64,000 nucleotides of DNA from Enterobacteria phage vB_EcoM_IME339, in the sequence record MH051915; one strand, written 5' to 3'. The position numbers and the translations under genes were made by a program. A model generated the notes under the pieces. It was not told the DNA's origin and did no database searches. It worked only from the letters and a program-made list of their open reading frames with translations. Below, in pieces: positions 7,527 to 54,868 of the stretch (positions within the stretch are counted from its first letter, which is position 1; the number at the start of each line of letters is the position of its first letter).

Positions 7527-7556
7527 GTTTACTTTTCCTCTTGACTGTGGTATAAT
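7527..7556 (+). promoter_or_regulatory. early promoter upstream of regB
   Basis: GTTTAC, 18-nt spacer, TGTGGTATAAT. Confidence 0.6.
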
Positions 7557-7583: not shown

Positions 7584-8045
7584 ATGACTATCAACACAGA
7601 AGTTTTTATCCGTCGAAATAAGCTCCGTCGTCACTTTGAGTCGGAGTTTCGTCAAATTAACAATGAGATTCGTGAGGCATCAAAAGCAGCAGGGGTCTCA
7701 TCGTTTCATCTAAAATATTCTCAACATCTTCTTGATCGTGCAATTCAACGGGAGATTGATGAGACATATGTTTTTGAATTATTCCACAAAATAAAAGACC
7801 ATGTTTTAGAAGTTAATGAATTCCTGAGTATGCCTCCACGCCCTGATATTGACGAAGATTTTATTGATGGTGTTGAATATCGTCCTGGGCGTTTAGAAAT
7901 CACAGATGGAAATCTTTGGCTTGGATTTACAGTTTGTAAACCTAATGCGAAGTTCAAAGACCCGTCGCTTCAATGCAGGATGGCAATTATCAACAGTCGT
8001 CGTTTACCGGGAAAGGCTTCTAAGGCAGTAATTAAAACTCAATGA
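7584..8045 (+). CDS. regB: RegB site-specific endoribonuclease
   Basis: 153 aa, MTINTEVFIRRNKLRRHFESEF...; length and sequence as recalled for T4 RegB. Confidence 0.9.
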   Translation: MTINTEVFIRRNKLRRHFESEFRQINNEIREASKAAGVSSFHLKYSQHLLDRAIQREIDETYVFELFHKIKDHVLEVNEFLSMPPRPDIDEDFIDGVEYRPGRLEITDGNLWLGFTVCKPNAKFKDPSLQCRMAIINSRRLPGKASKAVIKTQ

Positions 8046-8052
8046 GGTAAGC

Positions 8053-8598
8053 ATGAGAAAAGCACTACTCGCTGGTCTATTGGCCATTTCTATGATGGCA
8101 CATAGCTCCGAGCATACTTTCAGTAATGTCCAACTCGATAACATGCGTTACGCGTATCAATTCGGGGAACAATTTTCTAAGGATGGAAAATATAAAACAC
8201 ACAAAAATATCCACAAGAGCGGATTAGGCCATATAATGGCTGCTATTTTATGGCAAGAAAGCTCTGCCGGAGTTAATTTAAAATCTAAACCAAAGCATCA
8301 CGCTTATGGAATGTTCCAAAATTATTTGCCTACTATGCGAGCGAGAGTTAAGGAACTTGGTTATAATATGACCGATGCTGAAATAAAAAGAATGTTGAAT
8401 AAACGGTCCAATTCAGCTTCCTGGGCGTACATTGAACTTTCTTATTGGTTAAATATACATAAGGGCGATATAAGAAAGGCAATATCCTCTTATAATTCGG
8501 GATGGAATGTTAAAGCAGGTTCTAAATATGCTTCTGAAGTCCTAGAAAAGGCTAATTACCTTAAAAATAATAAACTTTTGGAAATAGTAAATGACTAA
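8053..8598 (+). CDS. secreted lytic transglycosylase-like protein (vs.1 position)
   Basis: N-terminal signal peptide; Slt-like core (...ESSAG...YGMFQ...). Confidence 0.65.
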   Translation: MRKALLAGLLAISMMAHSSEHTFSNVQLDNMRYAYQFGEQFSKDGKYKTHKNIHKSGLGHIMAAILWQESSAGVNLKSKPKHHAYGMFQNYLPTMRARVKELGYNMTDAEIKRMLNKRSNSASWAYIELSYWLNIHKGDIRKAISSYNSGWNVKAGSKYASEVLEKANYLKNNKLLEIVND

Positions 8599-8938
8599 AA
8601 TTTTGGTTTTATGTATAGGATTAATTTCATTTTCTGCTTCTGCGTTAGCAAATACATCATATACTGAAATTAGAGAGTATGTAAATCGCACTGCGGCAGA
8701 TTATTGTGGGAAAAATAAAGCATGCCAAGCTGAATTTGCGCAGAAATTAATATATGCATATAAAGACGGAGAAAGAGATAAATCAAGCAGATACAAAAAC
8801 GATACATTATTAAAACGATATGCTAAAAAGTGGAATACCTTAGAATGTTCAGTTGCGGAGGAGAAAGATAAAGCCGCTTGTCATTCAATGGTTGACCGTT
8901 TGGTAGATTCTTATAATCGAGGATTGAGTACTAGATGA
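8591..8938 (+). CDS. secreted Cys-containing protein (115 aa; vs position)
   Basis: Signal peptide MTKILVLCIGLISFSASALA; four Cys in mature part. Confidence 0.5.
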   Translation: MTKILVLCIGLISFSASALANTSYTEIREYVNRTAADYCGKNKACQAEFAQKLIYAYKDGERDKSSRYKNDTLLKRYAKKWNTLECSVAEEKDKAACHSMVDRLVDSYNRGLSTR

Positions 8939-9402
8939 TTGTAAAATATATCAAGGGCGATATTGTCGCCCTTTTCGCTGAAGGTAAAAATATTGCGCAT
9001 GGATGCAATTGTTTTCATACTATGGGTTCAGGCGTAGCGGGTCAATTAACCAAAGCTTTCCCTAAAATTTTGGAAGCTGATAAATTACAGACTGAATGGG
9101 GTGATGTAACTAAACTTGGTTCTTACTCAGTCTATGAAAAATACTTTAGGACTCATAAAGCGTATTGCTTCAACCTTTATACTCAATTTCAACCAGGGCC
9201 AAATTTTGAGTATTCCGCTTTAATGAATTGTATGTTAGAATTAAATGAGTTTGGTGAAAATAAACTGATTAAACCTACAATCTATATGCCTAGGATTGGT
9301 GCAGGCATAGGTAAAGGGAACTGGGATATTATTGAGGGGATTTTAGATACATATTCCTCTAAATTAGAAATTGTGATTGTTGATTGGGAACCATTATTAT
9401 GA
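8935..9402 (+). CDS. macro-domain-like protein (155 aa)
   Basis: KGDIV...IAHGCNCFHTMGSGVAGQL and PRIGAGIGKGNW resemble macro-domain ADP-ribose-binding motifs. Confidence 0.55.
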   Translation: MIVKYIKGDIVALFAEGKNIAHGCNCFHTMGSGVAGQLTKAFPKILEADKLQTEWGDVTKLGSYSVYEKYFRTHKAYCFNLYTQFQPGPNFEYSALMNCMLELNEFGENKLIKPTIYMPRIGAGIGKGNWDIIEGILDTYSSKLEIVIVDWEPLL

Positions 9403-9611
9403 ATATACATTATCCACATCCATATGACCCAAAGAATAAGGCAGTAATTATTCGTCAATGGGAACGCATTTGCCGTACTAAATGCCCAATTAATAGTCCA
9501 CATGACGTAGATAAAGACTACATTGGAACATTCGTTGAATATACCTTTATTGATAAGAAAGGTCGTAAACAGCATGTAGAAGAATACTGCTTAAAGGTTA
9601 CATGGTTATGA
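9399..9611 (+). CDS. hypothetical protein (70 aa)
   Basis: ORF track 9384..9611; ATG 9399 overlaps upstream stop. Confidence 0.45.
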   Translation: MNIHYPHPYDPKNKAVIIRQWERICRTKCPINSPHDVDKDYIGTFVEYTFIDKKGRKQHVEEYCLKVTWL

Positions 9612-46987: not shown

Positions 46988-47016
46988 TTTACAAGCTGAC
47001 AAGACTATGGTATAGT
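46987..47016 (+). promoter_or_regulatory. early promoter with inverted repeat over -10
   Basis: GTTTAC, 18 nt, TATAGT inside 'gacaagactatggtatagtagtcttgt'. Confidence 0.55.
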
Positions 47017-47045
47017 AGTCTTGTTGGTTAAATGGGGAGATTGTT

Positions 47046-47228
47046 ATGGAATTGGTAAAGGTAGTTTTTATGGGGTGGTTTAAGAATGAAAGCATGTTTA
47101 CTAAAGAAATCACAATGATGAAAGATGACGTTCAATGGGCTACTACTCAATATGCTGAAGTTAATAAAGCATTAGTTAAAGCTTTCATTGATGACAAGAA
47201 AGTATGTGAAGTTGATTGTCGAGGATAA
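47046..47228 (+). CDS. dmd: Dmd antitoxin (discriminator of mRNA degradation)
   Basis: 60 aa, first ORF after gene 41 as in T4 (61.5); sequence recalled as Dmd-like. Confidence 0.7.
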   Translation: MELVKVVFMGWFKNESMFTKEITMMKDDVQWATTQYAEVNKALVKAFIDDKKVCEVDCRG

Positions 47229-47229
47229 T

Positions 47230-47472
47230 ATGCATATTGTTTTATTTAAACCTACTCCGTATAATGTCAGGAAAAATACTCAATTCAAAGCACTTGTTGC
47301 AGATACGTGGGAATTGGTGTTAGATATTCCAGCAGAAGAAAGTCCTCCATTTGGTCGAGTGGAATTTATTAAGTTTGCTGTGCGCCCTACGAAGCGACAG
47401 ATTCGCCAATGCAAAAGATACTTTCGTAAAATCGTCAAGTTAGAGAAACAGTTATTGATGCTAGTAAAATAG
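47230..47472 (+). CDS. hypothetical protein (80 aa; 61.4 position)
   Basis: ORF track 47188; ATG 47230 behind SD. Confidence 0.5.
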   Translation: MHIVLFKPTPYNVRKNTQFKALVADTWELVLDIPAEESPPFGRVEFIKFAVRPTKRQIRQCKRYFRKIVKLEKQLLMLVK

Positions 47473-47474
47473 TA

Positions 47475-47504
47475 GTTTACAAGCTGATAGAGTTGTGTTA
47501 TAGT
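47475..47504 (+). promoter_or_regulatory. early promoter with inverted repeat over -10
   Basis: GTTTAC, 18 nt, TATAGT; 'gctgatagag...ctatcagc'. Confidence 0.5.
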
Positions 47505-47535
47505 AATTCTATCAGCTAATCGCGGAGAAAAGAAA

Positions 47536-47790
47536 ATGATGCTAGTTAATAGAGAATATCAGTTTAAATCAGAAGAAGATTTGGAAAAATTCGCGAGTGG
47601 TTGTGAACTGAATAGACGCACAGCTAAAGTCATAGGATTAAAACCCTTTACAGTTCTAGATTGTGAAGTTTCTAAATTCCGCAGAGGGTGTTCTATTAGC
47701 GGTCATGCTCTGGTTGATGGGAACACATTTTTCTTTGTTTTTAGCGTCAGAGAACTTTTATTGATTAACGAACTTGAGGAAATAAAATAG
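47536..47790 (+). CDS. hypothetical protein (84 aa)
   Basis: ORF track. Confidence 0.5.
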   Translation: MMLVNREYQFKSEEDLEKFASGCELNRRTAKVIGLKPFTVLDCEVSKFRRGCSISGHALVDGNTFFFVFSVRELLLINELEEIK

Positions 47791-47854
47791 TTTACTTTTA
47801 TTTTAAACATGTTATTATAGACCTATCAAAACAAACGAGTAAATGGAGAACAAA

Positions 47855-48037
47855 ATGTCTAAAGTATCAGGTTATCAATTATTAACACAAGAACAACGTT
47901 CAGAGATGGATTCTTTACAAGAACGGTGTCAGCATAGAAATAACGCACTTGATTCATTTTTATTAGTTGAATATGAAAACTTGTGCTCTAGACTTGAAAA
48001 AGAATATGTTCATCAACATGAAGGAGGAGAAGAATGA
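47855..48037 (+). CDS. hypothetical protein (60 aa)
   Basis: ORF track 47843; ATG 47855 behind GGAG. Confidence 0.45.
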   Translation: MSKVSGYQLLTQEQRSEMDSLQERCQHRNNALDSFLLVEYENLCSRLEKEYVHQHEGGEE

Positions 48038-48140
48038 AACTGAAATCACCAATTATTGCAATTTGTCTGTTTGCTTCTACTAGTGTTTACTTTTGTTGAA
48101 AATTGAGATACTATAAACATAAACTACTGAGGAGATTATC

Positions 48141-48434
48141 ATGAAAAAATTTATCTTTGCTGCAATTTTTGCTTTATCTTCTTGCGCTGCTCAGCCTGCT
48201 ATGGCGGGTTATGACAAAGATTTGTGTGAATGGTCTATGACTGCAGATCAGACTGAAGTTGAAACTCAAATTGAAGCAGATATTATGAATATCGTTGAGC
48301 GTGATCGTCCTGAAATGAAAGCTGAAGTGCAAAAACAGCTTAAGTCTGGTGGTGTAATGCAGTATAATTATGTTCTATATTGCGATAAAAACTTTAATAA
48401 TAAAAATATCATCGCTGAAGTGGTAGGTGAGTAA
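48141..48434 (+). CDS. sp: periplasmic Spackle-like protein
   Basis: 97 aa; signal peptide MKKFIFAAIFALSSCAAQPAMA; T4 Sp (61.3) size and position. Confidence 0.65.
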   Translation: MKKFIFAAIFALSSCAAQPAMAGYDKDLCEWSMTADQTEVETQIEADIMNIVERDRPEMKAEVQKQLKSGGVMQYNYVLYCDKNFNNKNIIAEVVGE

Positions 48435-48446
48435 TTAGAGGTTAGT

Positions 48447-48803
48447 ATGTATAGTTCTGAATTTTCATATTTAAAAATGGAAAAAATTTCATACGATTTT
48501 ATAGATGAAAAGGTTTATTACAGTTTCCATGAACCATGTTTTAATAGTGAGGTCGGGTTTATTGTAGTAAAAGACAATTTCATTTTAAAAATATATTCGG
48601 CATTAAAGGATTTTCACTACGAAAATATTAACCTAAAATTTGACAAAGAAAACGTTCGTAATTGCGCAGTAACAATTACAGGAAATAAAGGTACATGCGT
48701 TATGCTATCTGATGAAATTAATGATTTGTTAAATGATGCCGAAAAGGTTGCTATTCCATCGATTGATGACCAAATTTTTAATGCTTTTATGAATAGAGGT
48801 TAA
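48447..48803 (+). CDS. hypothetical protein (118 aa; 61.2 position)
   Basis: ORF track. Confidence 0.5.
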   Translation: MYSSEFSYLKMEKISYDFIDEKVYYSFHEPCFNSEVGFIVVKDNFILKIYSALKDFHYENINLKFDKENVRNCAVTITGNKGTCVMLSDEINDLLNDAEKVAIPSIDDQIFNAFMNRG

Positions 48804-48804
48804 T

Positions 48805-48970
48805 GTGAAAACATATAAAGAATTTATCAAAGAAGATATGGTAGCTGGAGATTCGGGTGGTAATCCTGAAAATATCTCCACTGGAACAACATCAGGCGCT
48901 GTAGTAAATAAAGGTCCTGAACAGATTCCTAAAAAGAAAAAAGAGGAATCTAAAGAAAAAGAAGAGTAAA
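48805..48970 (+). CDS. small protein (54 aa) with capsid-targeting-like N-terminus
   Basis: Hand-translated, GTG start: (M)KTYKEFIKEDMVAGDSGGNPEN...KKKKEESKEKEE; N-terminus resembles MKTYQEFI CTS. Confidence 0.4.
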
Positions 48971-50000: not shown

Positions 50001-50197
50001 ATTAACCCAACCAAAGCAAATGCTAAATCTACGAATGTATCAAGAGTAATTACTGGAATACTAACGCCATGAGCAATAGCAACTGGCGATAAAACAAAAT
50101 TCCAAAGTAAAATTCCTATCATAGCAGAAATAGTAAAAGCTATACGTTTTTTATTACCTTTTATGGCATTAACAAGTGCCATTAATTTTTGTACCAT
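49997..50197 (-). CDS. small hydrophobic membrane protein (66 aa), antisense-oriented
   Basis: Only ORF in the 61-56 intergenic gap; GGAGGA SD 5-10 nt upstream on minus strand. Confidence 0.45.
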   Translation of the reverse strand: MVQKLMALVNAIKGNKKRIAFTISAMIGILLWNFVLSPVAIAHGVSIPVITLDTFVDLAFALVGLI

Positions 50198-50268
50198 ATA
50201 TCCTCCTTATTGCTTTATATATTTATTGTATAATTAATCTACTAATCCATGAATTGAAAGGAAAAATA

Positions 50269-50787
50269 ATGGCATACTTTAATGAATGCGCTCATTTGAT
50301 CGAAGGTGTTGATAAAGCAAATCGTGCATATGCTGAGAATATTATGCACAATATTGACCCGCTGCAGGTTATGCTTGATATGCAGCGGCATTTACAAATT
50401 CGTTTGGCTAACGATAAACCAGAAACAAATCGTCATCCCGATTCACTTGAAACTGCGGGAGAAGTTCTTGCTTGGCTGCGAAACCAAGACGATTATATCG
50501 CAGACGAAACTCGCGAGCTATATACTTCTCTTGGTGGTATGAGCAATGGCGAAAAAGAAGCTTCTGCTGTATGGAAACCTTGGAAGAAACGTTATTCTGA
50601 AATGCAATCCAAGAAAATTCAAGATTTATCTCCTGAAGATCAACTTGAAATTAAATTTGAATTGATTGATCAATTTCACTTTTTCATGAATAAATTCATT
50701 GCTCTTGGAATGTCAGCTGAAGAAATCTTTAAACTTTATTATTTGAAAAATGCTGAAAACTTCGCTCGTCAAGATCGAGGTTATTAA
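50269..50787 (+). CDS. 56: dCTP pyrophosphatase gp56 (MazG-like)
   Basis: ORF track 50176 (extension rejected); ATG 50269. Confidence 0.85.
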   Translation: MAYFNECAHLIEGVDKANRAYAENIMHNIDPLQVMLDMQRHLQIRLANDKPETNRHPDSLETAGEVLAWLRNQDDYIADETRELYTSLGGMSNGEKEASAVWKPWKKRYSEMQSKKIQDLSPEDQLEIKFELIDQFHFFMNKFIALGMSAEEIFKLYYLKNAENFARQDRGY

Positions 50788-53619: not shown

Positions 53620-53645
53620 AGCTTCTGAAGTATATGGAGGCTATC

Positions 53646-54269
53646 ATGATTATTAATCTTGCAGATGTTGAACAGTTATCTATAAAAGCTGAAAGCGTTG
53701 ATTTTCAATATGATATGTATAAAAAGGTCTGTGAAAAATTTACTGACTTTGAACAGTCAGTTCTTTGGCAATGTATGGAAGCCAAAAAGAATGAAGCTCT
53801 TCATCGGCAGTTGAATAAAATCATTAAAAAGCATTTAACTAAATCACCTTATCAGCTATATCGTGGTATATCAAAATCGACAAAAGAACTCATTAAAGAT
53901 TTACAAGTTGGAGAAGTGTTTTCAACGAATAGAGTAGATTCATTTACTACTAGTTTGCACACAGCGTGCGGTTTTTCTTATGTTGAGTATTTCACTGAAA
54001 TAATATTTCGCTTAAAAACTGATAAAGCTTTTAATTATTCTGACCATATCAGCGATATTATACTTTCTTCTCCTAATACTGAGTTTAAGTATACATATGA
54101 AGATACTGACGGATTAGATTCAGAACGTACTGATAACTTAATGATGATTGTGCGTGAACAAGAATGGATGATTCCAATTGGAAAGTATAAAATAACTTCT
54201 ATTTCAAAAGAAAAATTACACGATTCATTTGGAACATTTAAAGTGTATGATATTGAGGTAGTTGAATGA
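53646..54269 (+). CDS. modB: ADP-ribosyltransferase (ModB-like)
   Basis: R-S-E triad: YRG, STN, EQEW. Confidence 0.7.
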   Translation: MIINLADVEQLSIKAESVDFQYDMYKKVCEKFTDFEQSVLWQCMEAKKNEALHRQLNKIIKKHLTKSPYQLYRGISKSTKELIKDLQVGEVFSTNRVDSFTTSLHTACGFSYVEYFTEIIFRLKTDKAFNYSDHISDIILSSPNTEFKYTYEDTDGLDSERTDNLMMIVREQEWMIPIGKYKITSISKEKLHDSFGTFKVYDIEVVE

Positions 54270-54868
54270 AATATTCAGCAATGCAATTAAAAGATTTTAA
54301 AATCAAATCAATGGATGCATCGGTGCGTGCTTCTATTCGTGAAGAATTACTTTCTGAAGGATTTAATTTATCTGAAATTGAACTTTTAATTCATTGTATT
54401 ACTAATAAGCCAGACGATCATTCTTGGTTAAATGAAATAATCAAATCTCGTTTGGTTCCAAACGATAAACCTCTTTGGAGAGGTGTTCCAGTTGAGACTA
54501 AGCAGGTGTTAAATCAAGGAATTGATATTATTACATTTGATAAAGTAGTATCAGCTTCATATGATAAAAATATAGCTCTACATTTTGCTTCTGGATTAGA
54601 ATACAACACGCAAGTTATTTTTGAATTCAAAGCTCCTATGGTATTTAATTTCCAGGAGTATGCTATAAAAGCTCTACGTTGTAAAGAATATAGTCCGAGT
54701 TTTAAGTTTCCAGATAGCCATCGTTATCGTAATATGGAATTAGTTTCAGATGAACAAGAAGTAATGATACCAGCTGGAAGTGTATTTAGAATTGCGGATA
54801 GATACGAGTATAAAAAGCATTCAACATACACTATCTATACTCTTGACTTTGAAGGATTTAATCTATAA
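54266..54868 (+). CDS. modA: ADP-ribosyltransferase (ModA-like)
   Basis: R-S-E triad: WRG, SAS, EQEV; paralog of previous gene. Confidence 0.7.
   Translation: MKYSAMQLKDFKIKSMDASVRASIREELLSEGFNLSEIELLIHCITNKPDDHSWLNEIIKSRLVPNDKPLWRGVPVETKQVLNQGIDIITFDKVVSASYDKNIALHFASGLEYNTQVIFEFKAPMVFNFQEYAIKALRCKEYSPSFKFPDSHRYRNMELVSDEQEVMIPAGSVFRIADRYEYKKHSTYTIYTLDFEGFNL

Follow-up and report, generated by a model that had tools for sequence, protein, structure and literature searches.

Identity of the tk.4 locus

The 64,000-nucleotide stretch of Enterobacteria phage vB_EcoM_IME339 analyzed here (record MH051915, referred to as the window) contains an open reading frame (ORF) of 155 amino acids (AA) on its plus strand, whose boundaries at 8935..9402 were confirmed both in the sequence and in the ORF table. 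This ORF is the Tequatrovirus gene tk.4, which was recently renamed adfM (anti-DarT factor, macrodomain). In a tblastn search, its protein was 100 % identical over 155 AA to Tk.4 of phage T4, listed as 'ORF 60.5' in X04567.1. The surrounding 3 kb match Escherichia phage vB_EcoM_IME537 at 99.8 % identity and several hundred Tequatrovirus records at 95 % or more. The best match of the first 25 kb of the window in the phage collection reached 97 %, so the genome belongs to a T4-like phage and not to T4 itself. Compared with T4 Tk.4/AdfM, the protein is the same, it occupies the same slot between vs and tk.3, and there is no difference at the protein level; the phage is a sister Tequatrovirus.

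Neither the domain nor the function of tk.4 is new. The gene has a name already, its domain is annotated in GenBank, and its function was assigned genetically in a preprint. The GenBank labels vary between 'macro domain protein', 'Poa1p-like family protein', 'ADP-ribose binding module protein', and 'phosphatase'. The features of the locus and of the other genes discussed below are listed in Table 1.

Table 1 Features of the tk.4/adfM locus and of other genes in the window (CDS, coding sequence)
Feature	Position	Strand	Remarks
tk.4/adfM CDS	8935..9402	+	single macrodomain, no extra domain
Loop 1 motif IAHGCNCFHTMGSGVAGQL, residues 20-38	8992..9048	+	holds Asn25 (codon 9007-9009) and the G-x-G-x-A stretch
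N-L-Y-T-Q motif, residues 80-84	9172..9186	+	Gln84 codon 9184-9186
Loop 2 (diphosphate-binding) motif PRIGAGIGKGNW, residues 119-130	9289..9324	+	G122 and G124 within
Likely Shine-Dalgarno sequence of tk.4, AGGA	8920-8923	+	read from the sequence
ATGA overlap of vs and tk.4	8935..8938	+	vs stop TGA 8936-8938, tk.4 start ATG 8935-8937; read from the sequence
ATGA overlap of tk.4 and tk.3	9399..9402	+	tk.4 stop TGA 9400-9402, probable tk.3 start ATG 9399-9401; read from the sequence
Candidate early promoter	7528..7556	+	sigma-70-like TTTACT-17-TATAAT with TG; consensus scan only
regB	7584-8045		
vs.1	8053-8598		
vs	8591-8938		
Hairpin inside tk.4	8953-8973		codons 7-13, AAGGGCGA-tattg-TCGCCCTT
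tk.3, mechanical ORF	9384-9611		begins at TTG 9384
tk	10176-10757		
Gene 56, dCTPase	50176-50787		203 AA
ModB-like ORF	53634-54269		PHROG 832
ModA-like ORF	54266-54868		PHROG 832

Macrodomain fold and active site

Tk.4 is a free-standing macrodomain of the TARG1/DarG/ALC1-like class. The preliminary description of the window, made from the sequence alone, had called it a macro-domain-like protein, and a profile search proved this correct: Pfam PF01661 (Macro) aligns with residues 22-132 over profile positions 2-113 of 118 and scores 27.7 bits, above its gathering score of 22 (E-value 2.9e-6). PHROG 335 matches at 1.3e-65, and the PADLOC DarG model at an E-value of 1.3e-9 over model positions 2-145 of 329. 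A phmmer search against the PDB sequences retrieved BT1257, Poa1p, SCO6735, DarG, and TARG1, and a profile of 61 homologues lifted these matches to E-values of 3e-18 through 3e-11. Structure prediction, which had been proposed as a check, pointed the same way. While the single-sequence AlphaFold2 model was unusable, with a predicted local distance difference test (pLDDT) score of 37.8, the model built with the 61-sequence alignment reached a pLDDT of 95.5 and a predicted template modeling score of 0.90 and has the three-layer alpha/beta/alpha macro fold. Foldseek aligned this model with TARG1, Poa1p, BT1257, and DarG in the PDB at a probability of 1.0 and template modeling scores of 0.72-0.82. 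Structurally, Tk.4 is nearer to the class of TARG1, DarG, SCO6735, BT1257, and Poa1p than to the MacroD, viral, macroH2A, and PARG classes.

Both ADP-ribose-binding loops of the macro fold are present (N25...G31-S-G33-V-A35 and I121-G122-A-G124), and they coincide with the two motifs (residues 20-38 and 119-130) that had first drawn attention to the protein. In the alignment of the 61 homologues, G23, N25, C26, G33, and A35 of loop 1, Q84, and P119, I121, G122, and G124 of loop 2 are invariant, whereas M30 and G31 are merely conserved in at least 90 %. The pattern is maintained in 140 further representatives at 50 % identity, where N25, C26, A35, Q84, G122, and G124 are again invariant and G23 and G33 are each found in 139 of the 140 sequences.

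Gln84 sits in the column of the catalytic lysine of TARG1 (Lys84) and DarG (Lys80) in three independent alignments, namely a HMMER profile against the PDB, a MAFFT alignment with reference sequences added, and hhalign against the DarG-type set. The same column holds a glutamine in BT1257, SCO6735, and ALC1. Asn25 aligns with Asn27 of SCO6735, with the asparagine of DarG, and with Asn23 of PhiKZ gp104, and altogether N25, Q84, G122, and G124 of Tk.4 map onto N27, Q85, G126, and G128 of SCO6735. Human TARG1/OARD1 (PDB 4J5R) works with a dyad of Lys84 and Asp125, the counterparts of which in Tk.4 are Gln84 and Gly126. Judged by these columns, Tk.4 is a putative Gln-type enzyme without the catalytic lysine; it differs from both DarG and PhiKZ AdfM and is no stripped-down DarG. 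This assignment of a candidate Asn25/Gln84 active site was not found stated in the literature searched. It would guide the choice of catalytically dead mutants towards N25A or Q84A instead of a lysine mutant, and it bears on the annotation of 'AdfM' across phages and on family counts.

The catalytic Asn/Gln pair is shared with the Gln-type, ALC1-like macrodomains SCO6735 of Streptomyces coelicolor (PDB 5E3B) and BT1257 of Bacteroides (PDB 2FG1/2AFC), to which Tk.4 is ~22-29 % identical. Where SCO6735 has I-G-Q, Tk.4 reads Y-T-Q. In published work on SCO6735, Gln85 replaces the lysine of TARG1 and DarG, and the Q85A and N27S mutants are inactive. The enzyme can rescue E. coli from DarT and, in vitro, cleaves the thymidine-ADP-ribose that DarT makes. 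In the mechanism proposed for it, Asn27 positions Gln85, Gln85 positions the distal ribose, and cleavage is water-mediated. The two proteins differ in their setting: SCO6735 is encoded by a chromosomal, DNA-damage-induced gene, whereas Tk.4 belongs to the counter-defence of a phage.

Tk.4 also differs from DarG (PDB 5M31, 5M3E, 5M3I, 7OMU). Lys80 of Taq/Mtb DarG lies within F-P-T-K, and Gln84 of Tk.4 within Y-T-Q. The DarT-binding domain at the C-terminus of DarG and the adjacent darT are both missing from Tk.4, whose gene has vs and tk.3 as neighbours in a phage early-gene block. The NCBIfam DarG model NF048014 gives Tk.4 30.3 bits against a cutoff of 250 and covers model positions 2-146 of 338. 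An assignment of Tk.4 as a DarG macrodomain was rejected because of the lacking catalytic lysine, C-terminal domain, and adjacent darT, and because of the score far below the NCBIfam cutoff. General similarity does not single out any reference group. The profile scores of the Tk.4 family are similar to all of them (69 to 47 bits), and the hhalign probabilities are nearly equal for the DarG-type and SCO6735-type sets (99.1 vs 98.8). The catalytic pair, unlike the mobile loop, resembles that of SCO6735. Tk.4 is best regarded as a macrodomain subfamily of its own, which is largely phage-borne.

Role in DarTG2 counter-defence

In the bacterial toxin-antitoxin defence DarTG2, the toxin DarT2 ADP-ribosylates thymidine in single-stranded DNA (ssDNA) and blocks replication, and DarG2 consists of a macrodomain hydrolase and a DarT-binding domain. 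In earlier work, T4 lacking adfA and adfN was still resistant to DarTG2, for which reason a further factor was predicted. When a T4 transposon library was challenged with DarTG2 in a HIDEN-SEQ screen, tk.4 was the single significant hit, a clean tk.4 knockout was sensitized to DarTG2, and the gene was renamed adfM (bioRxiv 10.1101/2025.11.20.689424). In the words of this preprint, it 'seems likely' that ADP-ribose is removed from DNA enzymatically.

From this phenotype and the active-site comparison, we infer a substrate and a chemistry for Tk.4. It very probably hydrolyses the thymidine-ADP-ribose that DarT2 places on phage ssDNA, in an SCO6735-like, water-mediated reaction involving Asn25 and Gln84. 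When a T4-like phage infects a host with DarTG2, DarT2 would attach ADP-ribose to thymidines in ssDNA and replication would be blocked. Tk.4 would then bind the ADP-ribose through its two glycine-rich loops, hydrolyse the bond between thymine and ribose, free the ADP-ribose, and make the DNA replicable again. In this way it would serve as an orphan antitoxin of the enzymatic type.

Several points weigh against this assignment. The lysine required by DarG and TARG1 is missing from Tk.4 in all three alignments. Tk.4 also lacks the Lys-bearing, five-residue extension of the mobile loop of SCO6735 and BT1257, where the alignment shows a gap of 5-6 residues; the authors of the SCO6735 study tie this loop, which is five residues longer than in DarG and TARG1, to the efficient processing of DNA. 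Val25 of SCO6735 is replaced by Gly23 in Tk.4. In sequence and structure, Tk.4 is about equidistant from Poa1p, and because Poa1p is about as close, the substrate is not fixed by similarity alone. No biochemical study of T4 Tk.4 was found in the literature searched, and the genetic evidence comes from one preprint using plasmid-borne DarTG2 (bioRxiv 10.1101/2025.11.20.689424).

Another reading makes Tk.4 a small-molecule enzyme that acts as a phosphatase on ADP-ribose-1''-phosphate, like Poa1p, or as a deacetylase on O-acetyl-ADP-ribose. Many database entries carry such names ('phosphatase', 'Poa1p-like', 'O-acetyl-ADP-ribose deacetylase'), which were transferred by homology. Yeast Poa1p (PDB 6LFQ), described as an ADP-ribose-1''-phosphate phosphatase, has a serine at the position of the invariant Gln84; this pairing is a by-eye extension of the alignment (LFTSS vs LYTQF), as the pairing printed by HMMER is one off and places the serine opposite Phe85 of Tk.4. 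For the active-site residues His23 and Ser30 of Poa1p, which were mutated in PDB 6LFS/6LFT, Tk.4 has His22, conserved in at least 90 %, and Thr29. A phosphatase or deacetylase activity would leave the DarTG2-specific phenotype unexplained, and T4 infection is not known to involve a Tpt1-type source of ADP-ribose-1''-phosphate. A role in small-molecule metabolism is therefore considered quite unlikely. Similarly, the preliminary description had suggested the degradation of ADP-ribose-derived signals; here the evidence points elsewhere, as the sole reported phenotype of tk.4 loss is sensitivity to DarTG2.

ALC1 is known as an ADP-ribose reader and not as a hydrolase. As it has a glutamine at the same site as Tk.4, and as Tk.4 lacks the catalytic lysine of DarG and TARG1, Tk.4 might be non-catalytic and bind ADP-ribosylated DNA or DarT2, shielding the one or inhibiting the other in the manner of the antitoxin mimic AdfB of ICP1, which neutralizes DarT through direct binding. 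However, ALC1 lacks the asparagine of loop 1 and the second glycine, whereas Tk.4 keeps all residues whose mutation kills SCO6735 (N27, Q85, G128), and these are invariant in ~200 representatives. There is also no counterpart of the C-terminal DarT-binding domain of DarG, as the partial match to NF048014 indicates, which makes enzymatic reversal likelier than sequestration of the toxin. Action by binding alone is thus judged highly unlikely.

A further proposal in the preliminary description was a writer/eraser relationship between Tk.4 and two ADP-ribosyltransferases of the same genome. The transferases themselves were correctly recognized: the two ORFs, together spanning 53634-54868, are ModB- and ModA-like. 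Tk.4 would accordingly erase ADP-ribose or RNA chains set by ModA, ModB, or Alt on host proteins such as RNA polymerase; among ADP-ribose erasers, macrodomains are the most common type. All three transferases are specific for arginine in proteins. For the class of Tk.4, on the other hand, the documented linkages are those to thymine, uracil, Glu/Asp (as esters), and phosphate. An arginine-specific macrodomain is cited in the literature (MavL), but MavL-type structures are missing from the top 50-60 structural matches of Tk.4. In addition, the ModB- and ModA-like genes lie ~44 kb from tk.4 and are not co-transcribed with it, and tk.4 was conditionally needed under DarTG2 only (bioRxiv 10.1101/2025.11.20.689424). 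An eraser of the phage's own modifications is hence very improbable. Since the loss of tk.4 sensitizes T4 to DarTG2, the writer opposed by Tk.4 would be the bacterial DarT2 acting on DNA, and the partners proposed earlier, ModA and ModB, are probably wrong.

Hydrolysis of DarT2 marks has a parallel in PhiKZ gp104, which is likewise a free-standing phage macrodomain that counters DarTG2, is also called AdfM (Cell Rep 2026, PMC13309987), and removes DarT2 marks from DNA in vitro (PMC13309987). In contrast to Tk.4, PhiKZ gp104 carries the DarG-type F-P-T-K lysine, is closest to DarG (E-value 9e-25), and is imported into the phage nucleus. Orthology of the two proteins was rejected, because BLASTP gives just a 23-residue local match around the loop 1 asparagine. 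They belong to different subfamilies and look like independent acquisitions. A more far-reaching reading, in which T4-type AdfM is a phage-specific third TARG1-like lineage combining an SCO6735-like Gln site with a DarG-like short loop and recruited independently of PhiKZ AdfM, is speculative and regarded as rather doubtful. The name 'AdfM' was given independently by two groups, to T4 Tk.4 based on genetics only and to PhiKZ gp104 based on biochemistry, and sharing it carries a risk of annotation confusion.

T-even phages stack enzymatic counter-defences to DNA ADP-ribosylation, with AdfA and AdfN (NADAR) directed against DarTG1 and its guanine mark, and Tk.4/AdfM against DarTG2 and its thymine mark. 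On the rather doubtful reading of a third TARG1-like lineage, Tk.4 may also have the broader substrate range of SCO6735 and TARG1, if it works by the SCO6735 mechanism; this range includes uracil-ADP-ribose on RNA and ADP-ribose on acidic residues of proteins. Tk.4 could then neutralize defences other than DarTG2 that ADP-ribosylate nucleic acids, or trim side-products of the phage transferases.

In the window, the other anti-DarT genes of T4 were also considered. The ORF of gene 56 was examined as a candidate for adfA and rejected, as it encodes the dCTPase (deoxycytidine triphosphate pyrophosphatase). adfA was not located in the window, where the 61.x region (47000-48970) has only ORFs of at most 118 AA. 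adfN (T4 30.3) presumably lies outside the region covered, as estimated from the T4 map. The gene 56 ORF is 98 % identical to other Tequatrovirus records and ~75 % to T4, which indicates a mosaic genome.

Size and distribution of the family

The Tk.4 subfamily comprises 1,263 representatives of 50 %-identity clusters at an E-value of at most 1e-30, and 18,278 related representatives are found at an E-value of at most 1e-3. Matches by tblastn occur in 2,749 phage records from many genera. Some family members are longer: among the best 140 representatives, ~15 % span 200-470 AA and combine a Tk.4-type macrodomain with N- or C-terminal extensions, e.g. P0177 (472 AA), P0230 and P0248 (302 AA each), P0148 (269 AA), and P0256 (274 AA). 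The extra domains of these long proteins might hint at further substrates.

One homologue is labelled 'MAG: macro domain-containing protein [Bacilli bacterium]', MAG standing for metagenome-assembled genome (GCA_051648945.1, JBOFGC010000414.1, 1927-2397). This contig was rejected as a bacterial context, as it is a T4-like phage contig with genes for Rnl1, a Dda-like helicase, Pnk, deoxycytidine monophosphate deaminase, and a T4 spanin. Its macrodomain gene lies between an ORF of unknown function and the helicase and not beside tk. Bacterial homologues adjoining darT were not obtained; the sole MAG contig examined proved to be phage DNA.

Gene neighbourhood and expression

The local gene order is regB, vs.1, vs, tk.4, tk.3 with small ORFs, and tk, which is that of T4-like records, and the slot of the gene is the tk.4 slot of T4. 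Because its start and stop codons overlap with those of its neighbours (Table 1), tk.4 is embedded in a tightly packed, co-directional block. The ATGA overlap at the start suggests translational coupling from vs to tk.4. For tk.3, the match to the PHROG 2008 profile begins only at residue 6 of the mechanically called ORF, so that ATG 9399 is probably the true start.

The best sigma-70-like match upstream of this block is the candidate early promoter listed in Table 1, which could perhaps drive tk.4. Promoter-like sites are not enriched in the region, as the consensus scan found 17 compared with 18.4 expected from shuffles. For this reason the link between this site and tk.4 is weak. In phage T2, the Tk.4 protein was detected in the proteome of infected cells, and tk.4 mRNA was paired with the host small RNA ArcZ on Hfq in an experiment using RNA interaction by ligation and sequencing (RIL-seq; bioRxiv 10.64898/2026.06.19.733364). 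There, tk.4 is wrongly given as a 'putative thymidine kinase'.

Within the coding sequence of tk.4 lies a GC-rich hairpin with a perfect 8-bp stem. Read on the minus strand, it precedes a T-rich tail, scores like a terminator, and folds more stably than shuffles (z = -3.1), while the plus-strand fold around it is not significant against shuffles (z -0.6). The stem is identical at the nucleotide level in Tequatrovirus Sf24, Mosigvirus mobillu, and Dhakavirus ESCO10, the latter showing a change in the loop only. The overall AA identity is 58 % in the case of Sf24. Moonvirus, Jiaodavirus, and Serratia phage 4S lack the stem, and their peptide differs there too. The hairpin could serve to terminate antisense or late transcription, or it could act in translation.

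Two observations concern the upstream neighbours. The N-terminus of Vs.1 reads by eye like a putative cleavable signal peptide (MRKALLAGLLAISMMAHS/SEH), and Vs.1 is weakly similar to lytic tail proteins (PHROG 2013, E-value 7.8e-5). The N-terminus of Vs, again read by eye, likewise resembles a putative cleavable signal peptide (MTKILVLCIGLISFSASALA/NTS). Export would be unexpected for Vs, whose annotation is that of a modifier of the cytoplasmic valyl-tRNA synthetase.
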